IMG/VR virus record: IMGVR_UViG_3300043640_000025
Location: 1 to 47,507 of that record
Source: a virus
Length of the DNA stretch: 47,507 nt
Reading direction: 5' to 3' (one strand)
Shown one piece after another: positions 2,313-47,507 of this stretch. A program made the translations under genes and the position numbers. The notes below the pieces were generated by a model, which did not search any database, was not told the origin of the DNA, and was given only the letters and a program-made list of their open reading frames with translations. The first letter of the stretch is position 1. Each line of letters opens with the position of its first letter.

Positions 2313-2755
2313 GCAGCCCTCGCCTGCTCTGACCAGAATGGATCTGGTGATGGAACATCGATCCCAGCCGATGCCGCGATGCGCTGCACGGTGTTGTAGA
2401 ACTCTGCGAACTCGGCGGTGGGCATGACATCGCGTTCGCCGTTCTCGTTCGTCGTCGTGGTACGGAACGGCCGACGCCTGACCTCGCCCATCACCTCGCG
2501 ATCCACCCATCCGAAGAATTTTCCGCAAAAGGATTCGTGCAGGTCGTCGATATCGTCGCCCGTCACAGCCTTGATCGCTGGATAGGCCACCCCGAATAAG
2601 GCCCTGTTTTGTACGTCGGTCCGCTCCTTCCTCGCCTCCTTGATCTCGATCCGCCAGGACTTCCCCGCAGGCAAGCGATCGACGAAGGCATGGACGTTGG
2701 CGCGGACGGTTTCGCGTTCCGGGGCATTGGCATTGAGGGTGTATTTTTGGCTCAT
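2309..2755 (-). CDS. ninB: NinB/Orf-family recombination mediator
   Basis: 148 aa. RTDVQNRALFG...TTTNE...MPTAEFAEFYNTVQRIAA..GI parallels lambda Orf (SLDQNRKLW...STSRMRVGEFAELLELIQAFG). Confidence 0.6.
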   Translation of the reverse strand: MSQKYTLNANAPERETVRANVHAFVDRLPAGKSWRIEIKEARKERTDVQNRALFGVAYPAIKAVTGDDIDDLHESFCGKFFGWVDREVMGEVRRRPFRTTTTNENGERDVMPTAEFAEFYNTVQRIAASAGIDVPSPDPFWSEQARAA

Positions 2756-3921
2756 GCGACCTCCTTTAGGTAGGCCTCGCGGATACGCGCGTCGGCAATG
2801 GTCGTGTAGTCCGCGTCCATCTCTATGCCGATGAAATCAAAGCCTTCAAGCACAGCGCCCCGCCCCGTACTGCCTGAGCCCATGAAGGGGTCAAGGATCG
2901 TTCCACCCGCAGGCGTGACTAGGCGGCACAGGTAGCGCATGAGTTCGGTGGGTTTGACGGTTGGATGGGTGTTTAGACGCTCGGTTTTTCCGCGCTGGTA
3001 CGCGTTATCGGCAGCGACGGCCGGGCCGTCGCTAGTTGTGTCTGGCGTCAGATAGCCGCATCCAGCTTCGCGCTCAGCTTTGCTTGGCTTGGCGCAATAG
3101 AAGAAACGCGCAGCACTTCCAGCGTCGAGTCGTCGCGCGCCCGGCTTCATGGCGAAACCTACGGCGCCGACGTTGGCACTATCTGCGGATGGCTCACCGT
3201 CGCGGCCGTAGCGCATGACTCCATAGATGCCTCGTGTCTTGCAGTCGCCGCTTGTCTTGGCGTTGGCGATCTGACCCGGCGCGGATGGGAATGCAGTAAT
3301 GACTTCATCACTGCCATCGTGGATCACGTTGGCGGGCCAGCGGCCGAGCCGTGAAGGAGGATTGCGGTCGACGGTATCGCCCACCATGCCCGGAGCAGCC
3401 GAGAGCAGCCGAGAGCATCTTTGATGGGCCGCCCAACCCGGCGTCCCAATCTCAGGCACCGCGCCATTCGGCCACTCGACACGGCAAACGTTGATATTTA
3501 TCGCCCCTGTGCCATGGGCCAGCACGTTGGCGGCCACGGTTCCTATAAGCGGCTTGCGCGCCATGACGATAGGCTCATGCGCAGGCTTCAACGCAGTGCC
3601 GCCCCACGCACCGTTGTGCGACTTCGGAAAGCCCGACCCGTAGATCCACATAATCTGGTCGCGAATCTCCCAACCAGCATCCTCGATAGCCGATGCCATG
3701 CGGTGATACGTCCGTGAGCCACCGAACGATAGGAGGTGCCCGCCCGGCTTGATGACGCGGAGCATTTCGGTCCAGAACTCGACGCCAGGGACGCCTTTGT
3801 CCCACGCTTTACCCATGAAGCTAAGGCCATAGGGTGGATCGGTGACGATGGAGTCGATACTGTTGTCAGCCATCGTCCGCAACACTTCGCGGCAGTCGCC
3901 CGTCATGATTTGGTAGCTCAT
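2752..3921 (-). CDS. DNA methyltransferase (N6-A/N4-C, beta-class motif order)
   Basis: Motif IV DPPYG near the N-terminus and motif I DPFMGSGSTG near the C-terminus. Start at 3921 (ATGA overlap with the upstream stop, GGAG 9 nt upstream). About 389 aa, longer than typical family members. Confidence 0.85.
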   Translation of the reverse strand: MSYQIMTGDCREVLRTMADNSIDSIVTDPPYGLSFMGKAWDKGVPGVEFWTEMLRVIKPGGHLLSFGGSRTYHRMASAIEDAGWEIRDQIMWIYGSGFPKSHNGAWGGTALKPAHEPIVMARKPLIGTVAANVLAHGTGAININVCRVEWPNGAVPEIGTPGWAAHQRCSRLLSAAPGMVGDTVDRNPPSRLGRWPANVIHDGSDEVITAFPSAPGQIANAKTSGDCKTRGIYGVMRYGRDGEPSADSANVGAVGFAMKPGARRLDAGSAARFFYCAKPSKAEREAGCGYLTPDTTSDGPAVAADNAYQRGKTERLNTHPTVKPTELMRYLCRLVTPAGGTILDPFMGSGSTGRGAVLEGFDFIGIEMDADYTTIADARIREAYLKEVA

Positions 3922-4133
3922 GCCACCAACTCCCATGCATGTGTCGGCCGGCCCATCCGCGAGCTACGCTTCACGACGAGGCCGGTCCTCACCATCTTTA
4001 GGTCCTTGAGTTCGGCGATCGCGAGGTAGACGTTGTGGCGTGTCACTGACAATTTCTCGGCCAATTCAGCGACACAGGCAGGCGCCTCGGTCAGAGCATC
4101 GATCACCCGAAGTGCAGTGCGTTCCGTCCTCAT
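3918..4133 (-). CDS. Winged-helix DNA-binding protein
   Basis: 71 aa. VAELAEKLSVTRHNVYLAIAELKDLKMV is HTH-like (MarR/ArsR style). Translationally coupled on both sides. Confidence 0.55.
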   Translation of the reverse strand: MRTERTALRVIDALTEAPACVAELAEKLSVTRHNVYLAIAELKDLKMVRTGLVVKRSSRMGRPTHAWELVA

Positions 4134-6683: not shown

Positions 6684-6902
6684 TCAGGCCGCCTTGGTTT
6701 TGGTTTGACGCGAGCCCCGGAAGAAGTCGGGCTTGAGGACGAATCGAATGCGCAAAGCCTTGTCATCAGGGATGGGCTTGGCCTCACTCCACTGGTAGAC
6801 GGCGCTCGTCGAGATATCGAGAGCATCGGCAAGTGCGGACACGCTCCCCCCGAAGGCGGCGAGAGCTTCCTCTTTGGTCATCTTGGTCGGCTGATCGTTC
6901 AT
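6684..6902 (-). CDS. Cro/YdaS-like HTH regulator (lytic-side switch protein)
   Basis: AAFGGSVSALADALDISTSAVYQWSE is the YdaS/Cro HTH motif. Divergent from the repressor. Start set at 6902 because the 6938 start would place the operators inside the CDS; 6881 is also possible. Confidence 0.65.
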   Translation of the reverse strand: MNDQPTKMTKEEALAAFGGSVSALADALDISTSAVYQWSEAKPIPDDKALRIRFVLKPDFFRGSRQTKTKAA

Positions 6903-6911
6903 GCCTACATG

Positions 6912-6975
6912 ATAAGCATACTTATACGTCGTGTGCAAGCATGCTTATGAAGCACGCTTATATGCTTGGAAGCAT
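6912..6975. promoter_or_regulatory. OR-like operator cluster (14-bp palindromes around AAGCATGCTT)
   Basis: ATAAGCATACTTAT 6912-6925, GCAAGCATGCTTAT 6935-6948, TGAAGCACGCTTAT 6948-6961, and the palindrome ATGCTTGGAAGCAT 6962-6975. All lie between the divergent cro-like and cI-like starts. Confidence 0.6.
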
Positions 6976-7642
6976 GACTAACCTGGCCGCAAGAATCATC
7001 GAGGCGAGAACCGAGGCCGGCATTCTGGAGCCCGCTGAATTGGCCCGCCGAGTAGGTGTTCGCCCTGCCGCCGCCTATCAGTGGGAGTCTGGCGCGACCA
7101 AGAGCCTCAAAGACACGACGCTAGTGGAGCTAGCTGATGCTCTTGGCGTCACCGCTCGATGGCTCGCCACTGGCCGCGCCCCAAAGCGAGAGTCTCAGCC
7201 CGTCGCGCGATTTGAGATACCCGAGGGCTACGTTCGCCTTCCACTCTTGGAGGGGTTCGCAGGCATGGGAAGGGGGGAATATGTCGGGGACTATCCGGAA
7301 ATCGTTAATTTCGTAGAAGTCACCAGGGAATGGGCGGAACGCAAGCTACACGGTGTTCCCATGGCGGCCATTCGCGTCATAACCGGACGTGGCCAGAGCA
7401 TGAAGGGCATGTACGACGACGGGGATCTGATCTTCATCGACGCTAGGGTCAAGTCCTTTGTGGACGATGCAGCCTATGTCTTTCGGTACGGCGGCCGGGT
7501 CCAGGTTAAGCGGCTGCAATGGCGCGGCGATCGCCTACGCATCCTAAGTGCCAACCCGTCCTATGAGGCCCTGGATGTCGACGAGGCCGACTTGGAGATC
7601 GGTGGAATGGCCCTTGCTGCGTGGACGCTTAGGGATTTTTGA
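6974..7642 (+). CDS. CI-type prophage repressor (HTH_XRE plus S24 LexA-like peptidase)
   Basis: HTH segment AELARRVGVRPAAAYQWESG. Candidate Ala-Gly cleavage site in GFAGMG. Ser in GRGQSM and Lys in QVKRL. Start uncertain (6941, 6947, 6962 or 6974). Confidence 0.85.
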   Translation: MTNLAARIIEARTEAGILEPAELARRVGVRPAAAYQWESGATKSLKDTTLVELADALGVTARWLATGRAPKRESQPVARFEIPEGYVRLPLLEGFAGMGRGEYVGDYPEIVNFVEVTREWAERKLHGVPMAAIRVITGRGQSMKGMYDDGDLIFIDARVKSFVDDAAYVFRYGGRVQVKRLQWRGDRLRILSANPSYEALDVDEADLEIGGMALAAWTLRDF

Positions 7643-7678
7643 TTCGGATATCGATGTTAGGGACACAGGGGACCTGAA

Positions 7679-8104
7679 ATGAAAGCAAGTACCATCCTGA
7701 TGAGTATGGCTATGCTTATAGCACTACCCATATCGGCGCAGGCTTTGCAGCAAACCGATCACGACACCTCTCGGATCGCCGAACATAAAGAGTTCATTCG
7801 AGGGTGCCGCTCGGCTACGCAATATATGGACGATCAAGCCTACACTCTAAGTGGAAATGAAGATTCGACGATCACCATCGCATGCATCGCGTATGTAAAC
7901 GGGATCAGCGAAGGTTTCGCAGCAGCAGGAAAAGTCACTGTCGGCGGAGTTCAAATATGCGTCGATGCGAAGGCGACTCCGGGACGAATTATTCGTCGCA
8001 TCGTTTCGTTGGACACGGATGATCCGCAGCACTGGGAAAAGGCATCGACCAGGATCACCGTAATTGCTGCCCTTGCTCAGCTCTATCCGTGCAATAAGTT
8101 GTAA
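7679..8104 (+). CDS. Secreted/periplasmic protein, Rap1a/Tai-like immunity-protein candidate
   Basis: Signal peptide MKASTILMSMAMLIALPISAQA. Cys pattern C.AYVNGI...IC(n)...ALAQLYPC resembles the Rap1a family as I recall it. AT-richer DNA. Sits directly behind cI and before a terminator. Confidence 0.45.
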   Translation: MKASTILMSMAMLIALPISAQALQQTDHDTSRIAEHKEFIRGCRSATQYMDDQAYTLSGNEDSTITIACIAYVNGISEGFAAAGKVTVGGVQICVDAKATPGRIIRRIVSLDTDDPQHWEKASTRITVIAALAQLYPCNKL

Positions 8105-8128
8105 GCCTCTTTCTTCGAAAACCACCAC

Positions 8129-8150
8129 CCCGCTCGCAGCGGGTTTTTTT
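8129..8150 (+). terminator. Rho-independent terminator of the cI operon
   Basis: cccgct-cgc-agcggg stem-loop followed by T7. Confidence 0.7.
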
Positions 8151-8202
8151 GTGCCTGGCAAAAGAAAAATAAACGGTGGCTGAACACATGTAAGTCAGCT
8201 TA

Positions 8203-8238
8203 GTAAGCATGCTTGCATTGAGATATAAGTATGCTTAT
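8203..8238. promoter_or_regulatory. OL-like operator pair
   Basis: GTAAGCATGCTTGC 8203-8216 and ATAAGTATGCTTAT 8225-8238. The second is the exact reverse complement of the 6912-6925 site. Confidence 0.6.
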
Positions 8239-8456: not shown

Positions 8457-8459
8457 GCC

Positions 8460-8675
8460 ATGAAGAATCCGAGCCCCCTCATTACCGGTCACGGCCTTGG
8501 CATGACGCCAGCCGACGCCCCGCTGGAATTCGTCAGCGACCAGCTGCGTATCGACGCCGCCCGCGCCGGCATCTCCGCCCTGAAGGCCAAGAACGCCGAG
8601 GCATCAGCTTTGAGCGCCGCTCTCGCCGAAGACGATGTTCCCTCCCGCGAACTGTGGATTGGAGACCTGTCATGA
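8460..8675 (+). CDS. Hypothetical protein
   Basis: 71 aa. The stop overlaps the next start (ATGA). Confidence 0.5.
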   Translation: MKNPSPLITGHGLGMTPADAPLEFVSDQLRIDAARAGISALKAKNAEASALSAALAEDDVPSRELWIGDLS

Positions 8676-9482: not shown

Positions 9483-9622
9483 CCATCTTCCGTTGCCGCA
9501 TCGGCCGTGAAACCGCCCCTGGCGTCGTCCAGACGCTTACCTACATCGGACCCTTTGAAAGCATCCCGGCTGGTTGGTCGATGGTGATGCGGCGGGTCGT
9601 TAACTCAAGGAAATCTGCATGA
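9479..9622 (+). CDS. Hypothetical small protein (47 aa)
   Basis: ATGA overlaps at both ends (9479 and 9619). Confidence 0.4.
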   Translation: MTIFRCRIGRETAPGVVQTLTYIGPFESIPAGWSMVMRRVVNSRKSA

Positions 9623-10527
9623 AGATCGAAATTAAGAATCGCTGGACCGGTGCCGTGCAGTTTGCTTGCGAACTGACCGCTGAGATTGCCGACAAGTCGT
9701 ATTCAGTCCAGCTTGGCTTTGCCGCAACGACGGCGTTAGCCGACGGTGCGAACCTGCGCGATGCGGACCTGGGCGGTGCGAACCTGCGCGATGCGAACCT
9801 GCGCGGTGCGAACCTGCGCGATGCGGACCTGGGCGATGCGGACCTGGGCGGTGCGAACCTGGGCGATGCGAACCTGCGCGGTGCGAACCTGGGCGGTGCG
9901 AACCTGCGCGGTGCGAACCTGCGCGATGCGGACCTGGGCGGTGCGAACCTGGGCGGTGCGAACCTGGGCGATGCGAACCTGGGCGATGCGAACCTGCGCG
10001 ATGCGAACCTGCGCGGTGCGAACCTGGGCGATGCGGACCTGGGCGGTGCGGACCTGGGCGATGCGAACCTGCGCGATGCGAACCTGCGCGGTGCGGACCT
10101 GCGCGATGCGGACCTGGGCGATGCGAACCTGGGCGGTGCGAACCTGGGCGGTGCGGACCTGGGCGGTGCGAACCTGGGCGGTGCGAACCTGCGTTCATTC
10201 AAAGCCGACCTCTGGATGACGCTTACCGATAACTGGCATGAAGTTCCGGCCCTGGTCACCGCCCTCCGCGAAGGCCGCGTCAACGGTTCGACCTATACCG
10301 GGTCTTGCGCCTGCCTGGTCGGCACCATCGCGAACGCCAAGGGCATCAGCTACGAAACCCTTGCACACGATTCGAATAACCCCGCCGAACAGTGGTTCCT
10401 GATGATCAAGACCGGCGACACACCGGACTCGGATACCGGTGGCGGATTCGCCTGCAAGAAGGCCCTTGAGTGGACGCTCGAATGGTGCGCGCTGAATGGT
10501 GTCGCCTTGCCGGAAGTCGCGGCGTGA
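9619..10527 (+). CDS. Pentapeptide-repeat protein with a Cys-containing C-terminal domain
   Basis: 302 aa. 30 consecutive (G/D)A(N/D)L(R/G) pentapeptides, followed by about 110 aa of non-repeat sequence (GSCACLVGTIANAKG...). Confidence 0.9.
   Translation: MKIEIKNRWTGAVQFACELTAEIADKSYSVQLGFAATTALADGANLRDADLGGANLRDANLRGANLRDADLGDADLGGANLGDANLRGANLGGANLRGANLRDADLGGANLGGANLGDANLGDANLRDANLRGANLGDADLGGADLGDANLRDANLRGADLRDADLGDANLGGANLGGADLGGANLGGANLRSFKADLWMTLTDNWHEVPALVTALREGRVNGSTYTGSCACLVGTIANAKGISYETLAHDSNNPAEQWFLMIKTGDTPDSDTGGGFACKKALEWTLEWCALNGVALPEVAA
9745..10194 (+). repeat. 30 tandem copies of a 15-bp unit G[G/A]TGCG[A/G]ACCTG[C/G]GC
   Basis: Counted unit by unit. Variation is confined to unit positions 2, 7 and 13, plus the last base of unit 30. 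Confidence 0.95.
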
Positions 10528-14976: not shown

Positions 14977-15013
14977 CCACCTCGCGCTTCGTTGATTGTT
15001 TGGGGGTGGTGGG

Positions 15014-15733
15014 GTGAGCCGAATTGAAGTCATTGGCAACGCCACTCTTTACCTAGGTGACTGCCGAGAGATTATGCCGACACTTCCTTCGGTGGGGGCG
15101 ATCATCACGGACCCACCGTATAACGTGACGGAAGTAAACGGTAGAGACGGTACGAAGCCTGGAAAGGTTAAGAGGAAGGACGGGTCTTACGCTGAGGTGG
15201 TTAGAAACTTTGGCGATTGGGATAGGAACTTTTCCGTCGACTGGTTTCTAAATCTCGCATTCGAGATATTGCCTCATCGGGGAAATCTCATAGCGTTTAC
15301 ATCTGACAGGCTTTTGTCTAATTACATATCTGGTCCGATGAAGCATATGCGGACCATGCTTTGGAGGAAGACTAATTCGCCAGGATCGTTCAATGCGAAT
15401 TACATATCGTGTGTCGAATTCGCTGTTTGGCTAAGCAAAGAAGCCCCTGGCGTCTTCAACGGATCTCGATCATTGCAGCCTATATTCGACTACCCGAGCG
15501 TTCACGGTAAACATCGATTACATCCAACACAAAAACCATTGAAGCTTATGGACGATATTGTTCGACTTCATACGAATGAGTCATTCGCCGTCCTTGACCC
15601 ATTCATGGGAAGCGGAACAACTGGCGTTTCTTCACTGTCGGCAGGAAGAACATTCATAGGCATTGAGTCATGCCGGGAGCATTTTTACGACGCATGTAGG
15701 CGCATTGAGTCATGCGTCACCACTCACGCCTAA
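15014..15733 (+). CDS. DNA methyltransferase (beta-class N6-A/N4-C), orphan
   Basis: DPPYN motif IV near the N-terminus and DPFMGSGTTG motif I near the C-terminus. GTG at 15014 with a GGTGG RBS; the ORF track starts it at TTG 14996. Confidence 0.85.
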   Translation: MSRIEVIGNATLYLGDCREIMPTLPSVGAIITDPPYNVTEVNGRDGTKPGKVKRKDGSYAEVVRNFGDWDRNFSVDWFLNLAFEILPHRGNLIAFTSDRLLSNYISGPMKHMRTMLWRKTNSPGSFNANYISCVEFAVWLSKEAPGVFNGSRSLQPIFDYPSVHGKHRLHPTQKPLKLMDDIVRLHTNESFAVLDPFMGSGTTGVSSLSAGRTFIGIESCREHFYDACRRIESCVTTHA

Positions 15734-15751: not shown

Positions 15752-15943
15752 ATGACCGGCATAATCAAGTACGCGTGGCGAGAGATCACCAACGGCTATG
15801 CAAGGGTGAGTAACGCAACCGGTGAAATTGTCGCCGAGATTCACTGTTGTTCAGCCTCCCGGTATGGACCGCATACCTACGGCACGTCTAAGTTTATCGA
15901 TGTCGAATCAGCCAAGAAGGCTTGCGAAAAGGATTGGCCATGA
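15752..15943 (+). CDS. Hypothetical protein
   Basis: 63 aa between the methyltransferase and the 408-aa ORF. Confidence 0.5.
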   Translation: MTGIIKYAWREITNGYARVSNATGEIVAEIHCCSASRYGPHTYGTSKFIDVESAKKACEKDWP

Positions 15944-17166
15944 CCAATGAATTTACGAGTGAGCAGGTGTTGGCGATGGCTGACACGCTTGATGAGGTTC
16001 GTTTCGACAAGATCGCCGCCATGCTCCGCTCCCTCCTATACGCGCGCACCGCAGCGGCGGGGGTGAATGTTGTAGCAACGCTTCATCTTCACCACGAAGC
16101 CGTACAAAGCAAAGACAAGTGGCGCGTTACGGGTGTTCAGGAGGCCATTTCGGATATCGACCTTCCTTCCGGCGAATACCCTCTCTACCTCCAAGCCGAC
16201 CGGCCTGTAGATAAAAATGTTGGCGCACTGTTAGGCACGCAAGGGGCTATAGACGTTGAAATCAAGCCAGCTCAATCCTTGGCTGATGTGGCCGTGAAAT
16301 TTCTTAGTGGTCTTGACCCGACTTGTAAGGGAATCAACTGCACGTTCAGTGATACTAACGGGAACAGGCATAGTTCTGAATGTCGATTTGAGTATGCCCG
16401 TAATTTGGCTAGCGGCATCGCTAGTGTTACTTCTGGTGTGACCGTTCCAGACCACATAGAAAACATTAAGTGGCGTGGTGAAATTATAAATTTGGTGAGA
16501 TTGGCGAGTGTGGATGTGGACGCTAGTCGTTATCGAAAACTCATCGCCGCTACCGATATGCCGTTCCCATTGTTGAGTGTATGCGACGACCCGGAGAATA
16601 ATCCGGTGCATAGGTACGGGCGTGAGCGCATCGACTCACTGATTGATGGACTCGACATCGAAACACCAGCCGTACCCACCACACCGAAGAGTGTTGCCCC
16701 GGACATTTCCGAACTGGCGAGCGTCCCGGGAAGCGCATGCCCGACGTGCAAGCAGTCGTTGCATGTGGCGATCGGGGACAACGAGGGCAAGCGGCAGGGG
16801 GACGCCATTGCCGCAACCCTAGGGGCGGACGGCGACAATATCGACGACGTGTTTCGCAAGGCGCGAATGCTGGCGAGTGTGGCGAAGAGGGATGTGGGTT
16901 GGCTGAAGGATAAGTATTCCAAAGAAAGCTATTACAGCGCGATTTCTTGGGTTCTCGGATATCTCAACGGCACAGGTGACAACGGGTCGACGATGTACAA
17001 GGAAATACTTCAGGCCAATGACGAAGACGAGCTAGTTGCCTATGTTCGAAAGAACGGCGAAATGCGGTTCACTGGCCTTGATCGTTTCCTGAGAAATCGT
17101 AGGGATCACGCCGCCATGCTCGCCTCCGCACCCACCCCACCTACGGAGGGCGGGGAAAATGGCTAA
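15940..17166 (+). CDS. Hypothetical large protein (408 aa)
   Basis: ATGA-coupled start at 15940. No family recognised. SDID...(about 35 aa)...IDVEIK could be a PD-(D/E)xK-like motif, but the evidence is weak. Confidence 0.6.
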   Translation: MTNEFTSEQVLAMADTLDEVRFDKIAAMLRSLLYARTAAAGVNVVATLHLHHEAVQSKDKWRVTGVQEAISDIDLPSGEYPLYLQADRPVDKNVGALLGTQGAIDVEIKPAQSLADVAVKFLSGLDPTCKGINCTFSDTNGNRHSSECRFEYARNLASGIASVTSGVTVPDHIENIKWRGEIINLVRLASVDVDASRYRKLIAATDMPFPLLSVCDDPENNPVHRYGRERIDSLIDGLDIETPAVPTTPKSVAPDISELASVPGSACPTCKQSLHVAIGDNEGKRQGDAIAATLGADGDNIDDVFRKARMLASVAKRDVGWLKDKYSKESYYSAISWVLGYLNGTGDNGSTMYKEILQANDEDELVAYVRKNGEMRFTGLDRFLRNRRDHAAMLASAPTPPTEGGENG

Positions 17167-18346: not shown

Positions 18347-18737
18347 GCAGATATGGCCCGACGTGATGGATCTGATGACCGCGGCGAAGTACCTCGGCTA
18401 TCACCCCGTCACCCTCAGGGAATGGAAGCGTAAGGGCGAAGGTCCGCCGGGCCGAAAGGTCGGAGGCCGCTGGCGTTTTCTGAAGGCCGCGCTCGACAAC
18501 TACCTCATTGGACAGAAAGCACCCGCATGGCCCGCCAACCCTACACCCTCGAACCTCGTGGCAAGAAAGGCATCTACTTCGCCAGGTTCACCGCGCCAGA
18601 CGGACGCCGCATATCGCGAAGCTCTGGGACTTCCGACCGAAGCCTCGCCGCCGAGTGGGCGTCAAGGTTCCATGCGGAGCATTACCGGGTCGCGCGGCTC
18701 GGCGACAAGCCGCGGCGGCTCTGGACGGACGCGGTAG
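18333..18737 (+). CDS. xis: Excisionase-type HTH protein (MerR/HTH_17-like)
   Basis: GGAGG RBS. LMTAAKYLGYHPVTLREWKRKGEGPPGRKVGGRWRF is an excisionase-family motif. The frame stays open to 18737, overlapping int by 211 nt, so the functional end is uncertain. Confidence 0.6.
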   Translation: MSAAEQIWPDVMDLMTAAKYLGYHPVTLREWKRKGEGPPGRKVGGRWRFLKAALDNYLIGQKAPAWPANPTPSNLVARKASTSPGSPRQTDAAYREALGLPTEASPPSGRQGSMRSITGSRGSATSRGGSGRTR

Positions 18738-19630
18738 TCGCGTGGAAGGCTGACCATCTTCATAAGCGAAGCCTGAGCAAAGACCAGCACAACCTGCGAT
18801 GGCTGAGCCCGTACCTCGAATACAAGTATCTGGACGAGATCAATGGGGACCTGCTGGCCGCGGTCGCGTCAGCACGGAGGGCGGAGCCCCGGGACAAGAG
18901 GCGTCGGAAGGATGGCACGACGTTCTCGGATGCCCTGACCAGCCAGTCGACGGTCGACAAGATGCTCGCGCTGATCCGGTCGATACTTCGGGACGCCAGT
19001 GAACGGGGATGGCTGGACAATGCCCCGTCGATCAAGCTGACCCACCCGGAATCCGAGGACTATCGGTGGCTGACCCGAGAGGAAGCTGCAGCCCTGCATG
19101 AGGAACTGGCGTACCATCTGCGGCCACTGTTCCTGTTCTCCCTAGCCACAGGCCTACGGGAGCAGAACGTCATGCGGCTGGAATGGTCGAAGGTCGATAT
19201 CGAGCGACGGGTGCTATGGGTCAAGGCGGCGGCGGCCAAGGGAAAGAAGCCGATCGGCATACCTCTCAATCGGGACGCGATCGCCGTACTCGTCGCCCAG
19301 AAGGACCAGCACCGGCAGTGGGTGTTCCCTGCCCCTGTCAAGCCCGGTAAACGGCAGGCCGAGCCCTATGACCGGGCCAACAACCACGGCTTCAAGGCGG
19401 CACAGGTCCGCGCCGGCATTGCACCACTGCGATGGCACGATCTGCGGCACACCTGGGCAAGCTGGCACGTCATGGCTGGGACCTCGCTACGCGCCCTCAT
19501 GGAGCTTGGCGGTTGGCGGTCCTACAAGTCGGTCTTGAGGTACGCTCACCTCTCCCCAGAGCATCTGGCCAGCGATGCGGCAAGGGTCGAGGGACTTGCG
19601 CCACTTTTGCGCCAGAAGACTGGCACCTGA
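18527..19630 (+). CDS. int: Tyrosine integrase
   Basis: ARQPYTLEPRGKKGIYFARF N-terminus. Catalytic region HDLRHTWASWHVMAG...LGGWRSYKSVLRYAHL (R-H-R-Y). Adjacent to attP. Confidence 0.93.
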   Translation: MARQPYTLEPRGKKGIYFARFTAPDGRRISRSSGTSDRSLAAEWASRFHAEHYRVARLGDKPRRLWTDAVVAWKADHLHKRSLSKDQHNLRWLSPYLEYKYLDEINGDLLAAVASARRAEPRDKRRRKDGTTFSDALTSQSTVDKMLALIRSILRDASERGWLDNAPSIKLTHPESEDYRWLTREEAAALHEELAYHLRPLFLFSLATGLREQNVMRLEWSKVDIERRVLWVKAAAAKGKKPIGIPLNRDAIAVLVAQKDQHRQWVFPAPVKPGKRQAEPYDRANNHGFKAAQVRAGIAPLRWHDLRHTWASWHVMAGTSLRALMELGGWRSYKSVLRYAHLSPEHLASDAARVEGLAPLLRQKTGT

Positions 19631-27066: not shown

Positions 27067-27653
27067 TGCGGCTCACCACCAGAGTTGTAGGCTGCCGCCT
27101 GCTCTTTTGAAGGGATCGATACCGTCACCGTGCCGCCCTTGATCATGCTTGCTGCGCTCGGAGAGTCACTCTGAACGTTCGGAACGTCCGGATCGCTGGT
27201 GTAATCGGACGAGGCAGTGATGCGAACCTCGCGAAACCAGGCATCGACGATGAGCAAGGTCACACCGTTGGTGGACTCGCGCCGATAGTCGAAGTGGACC
27301 AGGGTCATGCTCGGGTAGGTCTTGTCCGGGGTCACCAGATCGTAAACCTCGACCTCACGAAGCATCCGTTCGATGGTGTCCAGAAATTCCTCGCGGGACA
27401 TCGTTTCGTTGCCAGAACACACCATCCGCATCCGTGCATCGAAGGGCGTACTGACCTTGTCGTAGCTTGAAAAAGCTCCCTGCTCCATCGGGTAATCACT
27501 GACGCGTGACTCGCCGCGGTACTCGAACCCGCTCACGGTATCCGGCCGGATGACGAGATCACTGGTCATAGCGTTGACCACGAACCAGTCCGTCGATCGC
27601 GGGAAGAACAGGTCGACCAGTTCAGTCGCGGCAGCAAGCAGGACGGCACTCAT
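27063..27653 (-). CDS. Dit-like / baseplate protein
   Basis: 196 aa directly after the tape measure gene. VSDYPMEQGAFSSYDKV...LVTPDKTYPSMTLVHFDYRRE pattern. Confidence 0.45.
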   Translation of the reverse strand: MSAVLLAAATELVDLFFPRSTDWFVVNAMTSDLVIRPDTVSGFEYRGESRVSDYPMEQGAFSSYDKVSTPFDARMRMVCSGNETMSREEFLDTIERMLREVEVYDLVTPDKTYPSMTLVHFDYRRESTNGVTLLIVDAWFREVRITASSDYTSDPDVPNVQSDSPSAASMIKGGTVTVSIPSKEQAAAYNSGGEPQ

Positions 27654-29566
27654 CAGTTGAGCCCCGTGTCTGCTTGCGCGATCAACGAATTGTTGTCCAG
27701 AGCCCCACGCATATCCATGACGATGCCCTTGGCGTCCGTGGCCTGGGTGTTCACTGTGATGGACCCGATATGCGTTTCCGCCGTACTGGTCCGGCTGGCG
27801 AGTTGTGGTGCGGCGCTCGTCGCGGCTTTCGGACCGGCACCCAGCATGATGCCCTGCGCATAATCCTTCGCGCTGACATATTTCCCATTGCCCTCATGCT
27901 CGACGATGCCCTTTACCAAGGGCACCAGCGTATGCATGTCGCTCAGGTCGAGCTTCGCATTCGGGTCTTTGCCAGTGGCCGAGGCCAGTGCCTTGATGTA
28001 GGCCTGTACGTCGTTATTGTCACCAGCCGGCGCGTACTTGTTCACGATCTCGGTAATCGTGTCGATACCCCGGCGGGAATAGGCCTCTAGCTGATTGACC
28101 AGGGCGCTGACGCCGGTCGACATGTCCTCGAAGACAGCGAACCGGCCCTTTTCGCCGCCTTCCTTCGTCGCCCCTTCCTGCCCAGCGAAGTTGAGGTTTC
28201 CCGGATTGTTGTTCCGGACACCGCGCGGAAGCCTCGTTCCCTTGACGGGCGCCTTACCGAGGCCTCCGCCTGCCTCAATGATTCGGCTCAATTCGGGAGC
28301 GGCATTGCGGTAGGTGGACTTTTCCGCAGGCGTGAGCGACTGGTAGGCATCGACGCGCTTCTGCCTGTCCTCCTGCTTCAGCGAGGACCAGTTGTCCCGG
28401 GCGATCGCCATCTTGGCGTCGTCGTTTCCTGCGGCGGCAAGAACGCCAGCGATGCGCTTGCCGACCCAGTCGCCGGCCTTGGTGCCAGCCAGGACGTGAT
28501 CATTGATCGCCGTCCCCGTCATGTATCCGACTGCAGCTGCGCCGGCGACACCCATGGCCCCGAGGCCAGCCGTGGCCGACGCCAGCAAAGGAATGAGGCG
28601 GCCTAGCCCAAGGATCAGTCCGGTAATCGGTGCCAGCACCTTCAGCGCCAACACCGCACCCACGACGAGAGCTACCGTCTTCCATCCGCCGAACGCGTCG
28701 ACGACCTTGTTCACGCCATTGATGAGGCTTTCCAGCTTCGCGCCGACGGCTTCCCAGTTGACCGAATCGAGCCAGTTGGCGAATCGGTTAGCCAGGCGCT
28801 CGAGCGTCGGAGACAGGCGCGCGAAGGCGGTTTCCTCGACGCCCTTGAACCGCTGCTGGATATCGGCCCAGCTTTTCTGCAACCGCATGGCCGCTTCAGT
28901 GGACTTGTCCGTGACCTTGGACAGCCCTTCGCCGGCCGCCAGACGCTTCTTCAGCTCGTCCGGCCCCAGCATCAGCTCATTGAACATCGAACCGACGCCA
29001 AGCCCGTTGGCGAGCCACTGCGCCTGGAGCCGTGGCAGTTCGTGCATCCGCTTGGAAATGCTGAGCAAGGCATCGTCGATGCCGAGAACCTTCCCCTTGG
29101 CATCTGTCAGGGCAACGCCGTTGATGCGCGCCATGTCGGTCAGCGCAGAACTGCCCTTGATCGACGCCTCGGCCAGGCCGGAACCGACTGCCTGGATCGC
29201 CCCGAACGCGTCCTCAGCCTGTCCGCCCATCTCCTTGGCGACAAGGCCCCACGACTCCAGCTTGCGGGCACTGATATCGACATTGGCGCTCAGGCGACCG
29301 AGCGCAGCCTGGCTAGTGACCTGTGTGGAAATGAACTGCTTCAGCCCCGTCGCCGCACCGAATATGGCCAATACGCCGAGAAGCTCCGTTTTTACGGAGC
29401 CGAAGAATTCGGCCGCCCGCTTGCCGCTGTTGGAAACGTCCTTCGCGACGCCGTCAGCCTTGTCCTTGAACGAGTCCAGCCCTTCCTCGGACCTTTTCTT
29501 GCCCTTGTCGAATTCCTTGACGTCGAGGCCAAGGGTCATGACTAGAGCATCGACTACGGTGGCCAT
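27653..29566 (-). CDS. Tape measure protein with a C-terminal RNNNPGN domain
   Basis: 637 aa, helical with hydrophobic central segments. Position after the G/GT chaperones. Motif GVRNNNPGNLNF at about 28202-28226. Confidence 0.85.
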   Translation of the reverse strand: MATVVDALVMTLGLDVKEFDKGKKRSEEGLDSFKDKADGVAKDVSNSGKRAAEFFGSVKTELLGVLAIFGAATGLKQFISTQVTSQAALGRLSANVDISARKLESWGLVAKEMGGQAEDAFGAIQAVGSGLAEASIKGSSALTDMARINGVALTDAKGKVLGIDDALLSISKRMHELPRLQAQWLANGLGVGSMFNELMLGPDELKKRLAAGEGLSKVTDKSTEAAMRLQKSWADIQQRFKGVEETAFARLSPTLERLANRFANWLDSVNWEAVGAKLESLINGVNKVVDAFGGWKTVALVVGAVLALKVLAPITGLILGLGRLIPLLASATAGLGAMGVAGAAAVGYMTGTAINDHVLAGTKAGDWVGKRIAGVLAAAGNDDAKMAIARDNWSSLKQEDRQKRVDAYQSLTPAEKSTYRNAAPELSRIIEAGGGLGKAPVKGTRLPRGVRNNNPGNLNFAGQEGATKEGGEKGRFAVFEDMSTGVSALVNQLEAYSRRGIDTITEIVNKYAPAGDNNDVQAYIKALASATGKDPNAKLDLSDMHTLVPLVKGIVEHEGNGKYVSAKDYAQGIMLGAGPKAATSAAPQLASRTSTAETHIGSITVNTQATDAKGIVMDMRGALDNNSLIAQADTGLN

Positions 29567-45839: not shown

Positions 45840-46565
45840 TTACGCCGCGCGCGAATGGAGAATCTCTGCCAACCGCGTAATACCCTTCGGAGTCACACGT
45901 ACACGCTCGACCGATTTCTCGGTTCCATCCAGGCGCAGCACGACTACGATCTTGTGAGTGAGCAGGCCGGCCTTGGTTTTGTCGCTGTATGCCAGCCAGT
46001 CGCCGCCCTGATGCTTGTAGATCCAGCCGCGGGCGTGCATGGCCTGGATGAACTTCCGCTCCGGGACGTTGCATGCCTTTGCCGCTTCGCGAAGACTGAA
46101 AGATCCCTCCGAGTCAGATAGGCGCGTCAAGGCAACCACCTTCGGCCCCATCTCAGCCACCTGCCCTTCCAGCTTCTTGTTCTCGTCGGCCAGGTCGGCA
46201 GCAAGACGCAATGCCTCCGGCAAGGATTGAGGAATGGCGAAGGCTGGGGCAGCGGCCTTGTGCGCCAGATCGTAGAAGGCGTGGACGAGTCGACGCTTGA
46301 ATGCGCGGATGACCTCGGTATTCCGGAGATAGGTCATAAGGAGTGTGGCCTGTTGCTCGTTCAGCACGGCGAACTCAACATTTCCGCCGCCATGCTGCCC
46401 CTCTGGCCTTGGTCGGATTTCAAATCTGACCAAGCCGAAGGAATCGAAATCGTCCAAATAAGTACGGACCAATTTGATGACACTGGCATGTTCGTTCTCT
46501 GTACCCTCGGCAATCGCCAAGGAATCGGTGAACGGCGCACCATTCCGCAGAGTGACGAGATTCAT
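45840..46565 (-). CDS. Antirepressor (Rha N-domain plus KilAC/Ant C-domain)
   Basis: FTDSLAIAEGTENEHASVIKLVRTY is Rha-like. The C-terminal half LREAAKACNVPERKFIQAMHARGWIY is KilAC-like. Confidence 0.75.
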   Translation of the reverse strand: MNLVTLRNGAPFTDSLAIAEGTENEHASVIKLVRTYLDDFDSFGLVRFEIRPRPEGQHGGGNVEFAVLNEQQATLLMTYLRNTEVIRAFKRRLVHAFYDLAHKAAAPAFAIPQSLPEALRLAADLADENKKLEGQVAEMGPKVVALTRLSDSEGSFSLREAAKACNVPERKFIQAMHARGWIYKHQGGDWLAYSDKTKAGLLTHKIVVVLRLDGTEKSVERVRVTPKGITRLAEILHSRAA

Positions 46566-47322: not shown

Positions 47323-47507
47323 ATGAGTGATCGTCACCAAATCAAGCCCTACCCACTCCGTCTACCAGAGGACTTAAGGGGGTCTCTGGAAGCTTCGGCT
47401 GGTCGTGTCGGCCGAAGCCTGCATGCCGAAATCGTCTCTCGCCTACAGGAAAGCTTCGCGCCTCTTGAAGTTGCCCGACCGCAAGAAGCCATGCACATGG
47501 TCGAGGT
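47323..47507 (+). CDS. Mnt/Arc-family RHH repressor, 5' part (continues at 3..245)
   Basis: MSDRHQIKPYPLRLPEDLRGSLEASAGRVGRSLHAEIVSRLQESF. Divergent from the arc-like gene. No SD. TTGAAT (47287) - 17 nt - CACAAT (47310) would give a near-leaderless mRNA. Confidence 0.6.
   Translation, partial: MSDRHQIKPYPLRLPEDLRGSLEASAGRVGRSLHAEIVSRLQESFAPLEVARPQEAMHMVE
47381..47507. repeat. Terminal direct repeat, copy 2 (identical to 1-127)
   Basis: See copy 1. Confidence 0.95.

Follow-up and report, generated by a model that had tools for sequence, protein, structure and literature searches.

Rap1a is the founding 'Tai4a' immunity protein to Ssp1, a DL-endopeptidase delivered by a type VI secretion system (T6SS) (structures 3ZFI and 4BI8; PMC3852654). 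It is made as a 127-amino-acid precursor with a signal peptide of ~25 residues and forms a five-helix dimer, in which an essential disulfide, Cys78-Cys122, joins the loop between helices alpha2 and alpha3 to the C-terminus (PMC3852654). Tae4 effectors are basic, with an isoelectric point (pI) of ~9, and protection from foreign Tae4 effectors has been suggested as the role of orphan Rap1a and Rap genes (PMC3852654). T6SS effector-immunity modules or clusters are known on prophages (PMC11481896, PMC13366799). Here we describe a Rap1a-like gene directly behind the cI repressor gene of a temperate phage, in the IMG/VR virus record IMGVR_UViG_3300043640_000025. The whole stretch of 47,507 nucleotides was analysed and is called the window below.

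Both chromosomes and conjugative elements are known to harbour T6SS immunity genes of the orphan kind. In phage lambda, the slot behind cI that the Rap1a-like gene occupies here is taken by rexAB. We found no report in the searchable literature of a temperate phage whose repressor operon includes an immunity-only T6SS gene.

Family identity of the Rap1a-like protein

The gene is an open reading frame (ORF) with its own ribosome-binding site and a two-part product:

7679-8104, + strand: Rap1a-like ORF, 141 amino acids, stop codon included, containing the cysteine-framed sequence
7667-7672, + strand: Shine-Dalgarno sequence AGGGGA, 6 nt 5' of the ATG, read from the sequence
7679-7744, + strand: predicted Sec signal peptide, residues 1-22, cleaved after AQA, from sequence rules and hydropathy
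7745-8104, + strand: mature Rap1a/Tai4a-like domain, with cysteines at residues 43, 69, 94 and 138

The sole match of the ORF in Pfam (hmmscan) was PF18602, Rap1a, with an E-value of 2.1e-8 and 35.0 bits, above the curated cut-off of 27.7. It spans ORF residues 59-138 and profile positions 15-90 of 90. An earlier note on this DNA had named the Rap1a family, PF18602, and quoted a cysteine-framed pattern; the search bears out the named family, and the exact pattern is present in the ORF. Nothing significant was found for the ORF in PHROGs or NCBIfam, the PADLOC-DB defence profiles gave no match at E <= 1e-3, and phmmer against the PDB returned a chance match only.

The protein has very few relatives: of the 13 matches at E <= 1e-3 from a full HMMER pass over 1.84 billion representative proteins, one was a repeat protein and spurious. 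The family alignment holds 13 real sequences, the window protein and 12 relatives, all of which match PF18602 (best 3e-15). A word-indexed protein search with the ORF recovered the query alone, and the profile version of that search four of the 13 sequences. Scans of genome, viral and metagenome contig collections found no relative. Tblastn of the ORF and of the relatives P0008 and P0005 against phages gave nothing useful, and a KBNP1711 match (E = 3) was inspected and dismissed as chance.

Family members are conserved at 24-41% identity, with invariant residues: C69, G75, C94 and C138 do not vary, and C43 and P116 hardly do. Because the protein scores above the Pfam gathering threshold and shares four conserved cysteines with 12 homologues, the ORF is more than a chance reading frame. 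An antisense ORF of 104 amino acids (7847-8161, - strand) overlaps the 3' half of the gene and the terminator behind it. We saw no support for it as a real gene, and it was set aside as a chance ORF in GC-rich DNA.

The N-terminus reads MKASTILMSMAMLIALPISAQA, followed after the predicted cleavage site by LQ. It has a basic start, a hydrophobic core (maximal 10-residue Kyte-Doolittle mean 2.5) and an A-x-A site, and is without a lipobox. These n-, h- and c-regions agree with the signal peptide already noticed earlier, here judged by sequence rules and not by SignalP. An N-terminal hydrophobic segment is present in all 13 sequences of the alignment. The mature protein is mildly acidic (pI 5.9), as are most family members (pI 4.3-6.1 in 11 of 13).

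The gene is AT-richer than its surroundings, as had been remarked before: its GC content is 50.7%, versus a gene mean of 60.0% (58 genes; z = -2.5, second lowest), and its GC3 is 53.5% versus 71%. Its low GC content is the mark of a moron, an accessory gene acquired from a foreign source.

Structure prediction from the single sequence was useless, with a predicted local distance difference test score (pLDDT) of 38. From the 13-sequence alignment, AlphaFold (AF2) gave a model with pLDDT 84, in which most of residues 41-140 exceed 90. Helices are predicted at residues 36-51, 60-83, 101-114, 116-120 and 124-135, and a hairpin at 85-94. The Rap1a/Tai assignment also held up at the level of this model, since Tai4 and Rap1a were the only credible Foldseek matches in the PDB. 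The top seven were all Tai4 (6IJE/6IJF) or Rap1a (3ZFI/4BI8), with probabilities of 0.66-0.99 and target-normalised template modelling (TM) scores of 0.55-0.67; all others had probabilities <= 0.10. Likewise, the family profile searched against the PDB pointed to Agrobacterium tumefaciens Tai4 (6IJE/6IJF; E 0.01, hhalign probability 85%), with C94 and C138 aligned to the cysteine pair of that protein.

The 44-residue spacing of C94 and C138 equals that of Cys78 and Cys122 in Rap1a, in the same topological position, and the pair is predicted to form a disulfide. A second conserved pair, C43 in helix 1 and C69 in helix 2, forms a putative second disulfide. Compared with the solved members, ~8 residues are inserted before C94, predicted as a hairpin. 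Family members differ in the loop immediately behind C94, and the helix that follows is conserved. The counterpart of this loop in Rap1a is residues 81-87, among them Gln84, the residue that touches the catalytic His; variability of the loop is as expected for specificity-determining contacts. Profile and model together identify the ORF product as a divergent member of the Rap1a/Tai4a family, in a subfamily carried on mobile elements.

The gene lies in a predicted cI operon

The immunity region around the gene contains the following features:

6684-6938, - strand: cro-like gene, divergent from cI (P22_Cro PF14549, E 1.7e-10; phrog_409, 3e-13)
6912-6962: cluster of OR-like operators, in which the palindrome (T)AAGCATGCTTA(T) occurs three times, at 6914-6925, 6937-6948 and 6950-6961
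6974-7642, + strand: cI repressor gene (HTH_3 and Peptidase_S24; phrog_4, 1e-40)
8129-8150, + strand: intrinsic terminator, CCCGCTCGCAGCGGG plus T7, with a 6-bp stem and -9.6 kcal/mol
8204-8238: OL-like operator pair, at 8205-8216 and 8227-8238, after the terminator and before the rightward early operon

The gene upstream of the Rap1a-like ORF is a genuine CI gene. By tblastn, annotated cI genes of Klebsiella phages and lambdoid coliphages match its product at 33-37% identity, and the reading frame of the gene has in-frame alternative starts at 6947 and 6962. The cI stop codon (7640-7642) and the ATG of the Rap1a-like ORF at 7679 are separated by a 36-nt gap, in which the Shine-Dalgarno sequence lies and in which the terminator scan showed no terminator-like site. 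The position first reported for the ORF, 36 nt behind cI and ahead of the terminator, agrees with the coordinates, the Shine-Dalgarno sequence and the terminator scan.

The operator is a 12-nt palindrome, AAGCATGCTTAT, present three times between cro and cI and twice at 8205-8238. A pattern search allowing 0-1 mismatch found it within the window only at 6914-6961 and 8205-8238. A sigma-70-like promoter lies on the - strand at 6937-6909. Because the 5' end of the cro ORF overlaps the operators, the true start of this gene is probably an internal ATG near 6902 or 6881.

The order of the region, read from cro outwards, is cro to the left, three OR-like operators, cI to the right, the Rap1a-like ORF, the terminator, two OL-like operators and the recombination genes. 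The rightward early operon behind the OL-like pair carries pentapeptide-repeat, RecT, RecE and SSB genes. cI and the Rap1a-like ORF share a strand and are bounded by both operator sets, and the comparison with the rexAB position of lambda made in the earlier note is well founded in this respect. Because the operators bracket the cI-ORF-terminator unit in a lambda-like layout, we infer from the anatomy that the ORF is co-transcribed with cI in the lysogen, up to the terminator at 8129-8150.

Genomic context of relatives

The location just downstream of a diverged CI-type repressor was found for four of the 13 family sequences, the window and contigs L012, L013 and L010. L012 is a 39.8-kb lambdoid contig, in which a CI gene (HTH_3 and S24) is followed by the gene for a 98-amino-acid lipoprotein and then by the Rap1a-like gene. 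Three copies of a 17-nt operator (AGTMMACYATAGTTGAC-like) lie before cI, at 6972-7035; a terminator follows the Rap1a-like gene, and behind it are two further copies, at 8458-8498. This is the module of the window with unrelated operator sequences, and the L012 CI is only 30% identical to the window CI. In L013, cro and a CI-like gene diverge, and the Rap1a-like gene comes next. L010 begins its order with the S24 C-terminal part of a repressor, followed by a 103-amino-acid lipoprotein and the Rap1a-like gene. Since identities across the four cI-linked loci are low both for CI (26-49%) and for the Rap1a-like proteins (26-31%), the linkage is old or recurrent and does not stem from a single recent lineage.

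Elsewhere, the Rap1a-like gene was found directly 3' of an integrase C-terminus (L020), at the edge of an integrated element in Frateuria (L001) and after a CC0125/CC1285-family lipoprotein gene (L003). The remaining contigs were too short or had unrecognisable neighbours. A small lipoprotein gene, with the lipobox LSGC or LSAC, lies immediately 5' of the Rap1a-like gene in three relatives:

L012, 7702-7998: lipoprotein gene
L010, 416-727: lipoprotein gene
L003, 3292-3756: lipoprotein gene

In two of these three, L012 and L010, it stands between cI and the Rap1a-like gene. These lipoproteins may serve as a second accessory protein that acts on the envelope, or as a partner.

No effector gene was recognised near any of these genes. 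Among ~50 window ORFs scanned with Pfam or PHROGs, which left out some structural and very small ORFs, there was no Tae4 or other effector family, and none of the 12 relatives had a recognisable Tae4 gene beside the Rap1a-like gene. Because of this lack of effectors in the scanned phage ORFs and beside the relatives, we file the gene as an orphan, on sequence evidence not half of a cognate effector-immunity pair, in keeping with the earlier claim of an immunity gene that travels without its effector. The subfamily is borne by mobile elements and is consistently orphan.

Rap1a-like genes in virulent phages

A Foldseek search of predicted viral structures (BFVD) returned proteins named 'Rap1a immunity protein domain-containing', with probabilities of 0.89-0.95, from Escherichia phages SP5M and Bp4 and from one uncultured phage. 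The Rap1a-like gene of Bp4 is orf70, encoding 109 amino acids (L018, 12806-13135, - strand). It matches the family profile in a local hmmsearch (E 1e-4) and in hhalign (86%, E 5e-6). Its signal peptide ends in ...APSAQA, and Cys62 and Cys106 are spaced by 44 residues. Bp4 orf15 and orf2 were wrong candidates for this gene, and the local HMM search pointed to orf70.

By tblastn, an orf70-type gene was detected in 57 records, almost all of them Gamaleyavirus, virulent N4-like coliphages, in which it sits among early genes. Three records label it, as 'Rap1a' in Shigella phage Moonfish (PQ613263) and as 'tai4' in PBM-3 (PV053165) and UE-S5a (PP175015). The carriage of the Rap1a fold by phages is thus already visible in databases. 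No paper discussing phage-borne Rap1a/Tai4-like genes was found in the searchable literature.

The phage genome

The two ends of the window are 100% identical over 127 nt (1-127 and 47381-47507). This terminal identity shows the window to be a circularly assembled complete phage genome of 47,380 bp rather than an integrated prophage. An integrase (18527-19630), cI/cro and an anti-repressor (45840-46565) make the phage a temperate one. The designation as a prophage in the earlier note therefore stands for the temperate lifestyle; the contig itself is a free circular phage genome, and the prophage state would be that of its lysogens. RecT, RecE, SSB, large terminase and portal genes were also identified, and no tRNA genes were found in the window. 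Megablast of the Rap1a-like region revealed no close relative among GenBank phages, and every window protein that was checked forms a singleton cluster from JGI/IMG.

The lysis cassette (43.7-45.5 kb) encodes a GH108 endolysin, a holin and Rz. In tape-measure position, a 637-amino-acid protein (27653-29566, - strand) has at residues 444-580 a PHA02564 lysozyme-fold domain with the motif RNNNPGN. This domain resembles Gp29 of 9VVP and the endolysin of Hafnia phage Enc34 (7Q47, E 1e-13; PMC8943055), and is probably a virion-associated wall-degrading domain. Both wall-degrading enzymes of the phage are of the glycosidase type, unlike the cysteine-peptidase targets of Rap1a. Inhibition of the phage's own lysins was set aside as a role for the Rap1a-like protein, the lysins being glycosidases.

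Three further loci of the window were recorded. The first large gene of the OL-controlled operon (9619-10527, + strand), directly 5' of RecT, RecE and SSB, encodes a 302-amino-acid pentapeptide-repeat protein from ~30 tandem 15-nt coding units. In lambda, the matching position is occupied by gam, and the pentapeptide-repeat protein could be a DNA-mimic analogue of Gam. A DNA methyltransferase gene (14996-15733, + strand) has the lowest GC content of all genes, 48.5%. Downstream of it lies a low-GC ORF of 414 amino acids (15922-17166, + strand), with no match in Pfam, PHROGs, NCBIfam or PADLOC. The two may form an acquired restriction-modification pair, or the ORF may be another accessory gene. 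A second methylase is encoded at 2752-3936.

Proposed function and alternatives

With modest confidence, we favour a function in the lysogen: a periplasmic protein that would block an incoming Tae4-type DL-endopeptidase, as Rap1a blocks Ssp1. The repressor-maintenance promoter would drive a bicistronic message of cI and the ORF, ending at the terminator. The ORF product would be exported by Sec, freed of its signal peptide, oxidised by the periplasmic Dsb system and probably assembled into a dimer. As a pre-formed binder, it would then sterically plug the active site of a Tae4-type (CHAP / NlpC-P60-like) peptidoglycan DL-endopeptidase, delivered to the periplasm by the T6SS of a competitor. 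An orphan gene of this kind would raise the fitness of the lysogen, and hence of the prophage. A purely defensive role is proposed because no matching effector was met among the ~50 scanned ORFs of the phage.

This mechanism is drawn by homology from the pairs Rap1a-Ssp1 and Tai4-Tae4, and a T6SS effector, rather than a phage-borne enzyme, would be its target. The acidic mature protein, compared with basic Tae4, and the variable loop after C94 lend the proposal weak support.

Several observations weigh against it. Neither a T6SS locus nor a Tae4 gene is linked to any of the 12 relatives, which leaves distant family membership as the only tie to T6SS. That membership is itself distant in structure, with weak Foldseek E-values (0.1-1.1) and 11-18% identity to the solved members. 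The homologues in strictly virulent Gamaleyavirus show that phages benefit from the fold outside lysogeny as well, and could point to a phage-related target. Finally, in related phages the Rap1a-like gene often has a small lipoprotein gene as its neighbour, a pairing typical of superinfection-exclusion cassettes.

The last two points lead to the alternative that fares best, which we nevertheless regard as unlikely. The protein would serve superinfection exclusion or inter-phage defence, neutralising the virion peptidoglycan endopeptidase of other phages or blocking their entry, and would protect the lysogen, or a cell infected by a virulent phage, from competing phages and not from bacteria. 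The classic slot of exclusion genes such as lambda rexAB is where the gene lies, the lipoprotein pairing in L012 and L010 recalls many exclusion cassettes, and a lysogen-fitness role is impossible for the homologue in the 57 virulent Gamaleyavirus-type records. However, action on a phage enzyme is not known for any Rap1a-fold protein, and PADLOC gave no match. All characterised members bind Tae4-type T6SS effectors (PMC3852654). Exclusion by this route is also unlikely for phages with the same enzymes as this one, which are glycosidase-type.

It is improbable that the gene provides cognate immunity, matching a Tae4-type effector already deployed by the host species or by another element in the host. 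Lysogeny would then confer immunity to sibling attack, or the prophage would be stabilised. Family membership speaks for such a match as much as for the protection against competitors that we favour, and T6SS effector-immunity modules are known on prophages (PMC11481896). The effector expected in this case was met neither among the ~50 scanned ORFs of the phage nor beside the 12 relatives.

We give still less credence to periplasmic tuning of a peptidoglycan endopeptidase in phage lysis or among host autolysins, during lysogeny or infection. A predicted periplasmic location, membership in a family of hydrolase inhibitors and homologues in virulent phages would suit this role, but the gene lies outside the lysis cassette, the endolysin and tail lysin are glycosidases and not cysteine peptidases, and the position of the gene next to cI speaks for a role during lysogeny.

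A silent passenger, that is a decaying or unexpressed acquired gene without current function, would fit the low GC content relative to the phage and the status of this phage as a database singleton, but is very improbable given the intact ORF with Shine-Dalgarno site, signal peptide and all four conserved cysteines, the family conservation at 24-41% identity with invariant residues, and the recurrent placement behind diverged repressors with terminator and operators retained.

A broader reading, possible in our view and put forward only tentatively, is that tailed phages, temperate and virulent alike, routinely carry Rap1a/Tai4-type periplasmic inhibitors that guard the occupied cell. The gene would be wired into the cI operon in temperate phages and would be an early gene in Gamaleyavirus. 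Its targets would be endopeptidases injected by T6SS-armed neighbours or by competing phages. If so, interbacterial immunity would spread by a route so far unrecognised, carriage on phages, and lysogeny would have a direct effect on how contact-dependent warfare between bacteria ends.

If the protein of this phage is protective, a bacterium that acquires the prophage would at once face a different set of neighbours able to kill it, with this protection under control of the lysogenic switch. The small, recurrent cI-Rap1a module would then offer a simple handle on how phages shape interbacterial competition. Strictly lytic phages also use the family, which raises the question of what they use it for.

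Comparison with known systems

The locus represents a divergent orphan Rap1a/Tai4a subfamily wired into a temperate-phage cI operon, and is not categorically new. Like Rap1a (SMA2260, Serratia marcescens), the phage protein belongs to PF18602 and is a precursor of ~125-140 amino acids with a cleavable signal peptide, predicted in the phage case. The modelled mature domain likewise has five helices and the loop-to-C-terminus disulfide with 44-residue spacing. Against Rap1a, Foldseek gave a target-normalised TM-score of 0.67 and a root-mean-square deviation of 3.6 A. Unlike Rap1a, to which it is 11-15% identical, the phage ORF has the extra C43/C69 pair and the ~8-residue insertion, and lies outside a T6SS cluster, without an adjacent effector.

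Agrobacterium tumefaciens Tai4 (6IJE; Tae4-Tai4 complex 6IJF) was the best match by both sequence profile and fold (Foldseek probability 0.99). The two share Y(V/I)xG, the xC loop, the R..(V/I) helix, D.P and the C-terminal PC, at 15-18% identity. In A. tumefaciens, Tai4 has its cognate Tae4 next to it, within a T6SS locus, whereas the phage gene is an orphan.

The Gamaleyavirus ORFs are phage-borne as well, with a signal peptide and a cysteine pair at 44-residue spacing. They differ in their length of 109 amino acids, in being without C43/C69 and in having no link to a repressor, and are ~21% identical over the C-terminal half.

The acquired interbacterial defence islands of Bacteroidales, reportedly described by Ross et al. 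in 2019, are said to be mobile and to hold orphan immunity genes. An immunity gene without cognate effector is also the condition of the orphans Rap1b and Rap2b (Serratia) and the Rap1a-like ESA_03939 (Cronobacter sakazakii) (PMC3852654). For orphans of both kinds, a protective effect against foreign T6SS effectors has been proposed or shown. Such chromosomal orphans and the Bacteroidales islands lie in T6SS clusters or in integrative or conjugative elements; the phage gene, in contrast, sits in the repressor operon of a temperate phage and is tied to the lysogenic switch.

In its placement, the gene is most directly comparable to lambda rexAB: downstream of cI, between OR and OL, in a unit closed by a terminator and, as its anatomy suggests, expressed in the lysogen. 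There is no homology between the two. RexAB is a cytoplasmic/membrane abortive-infection system, whereas the phage ORF is predicted to encode a periplasmic protein of the inhibitor type.

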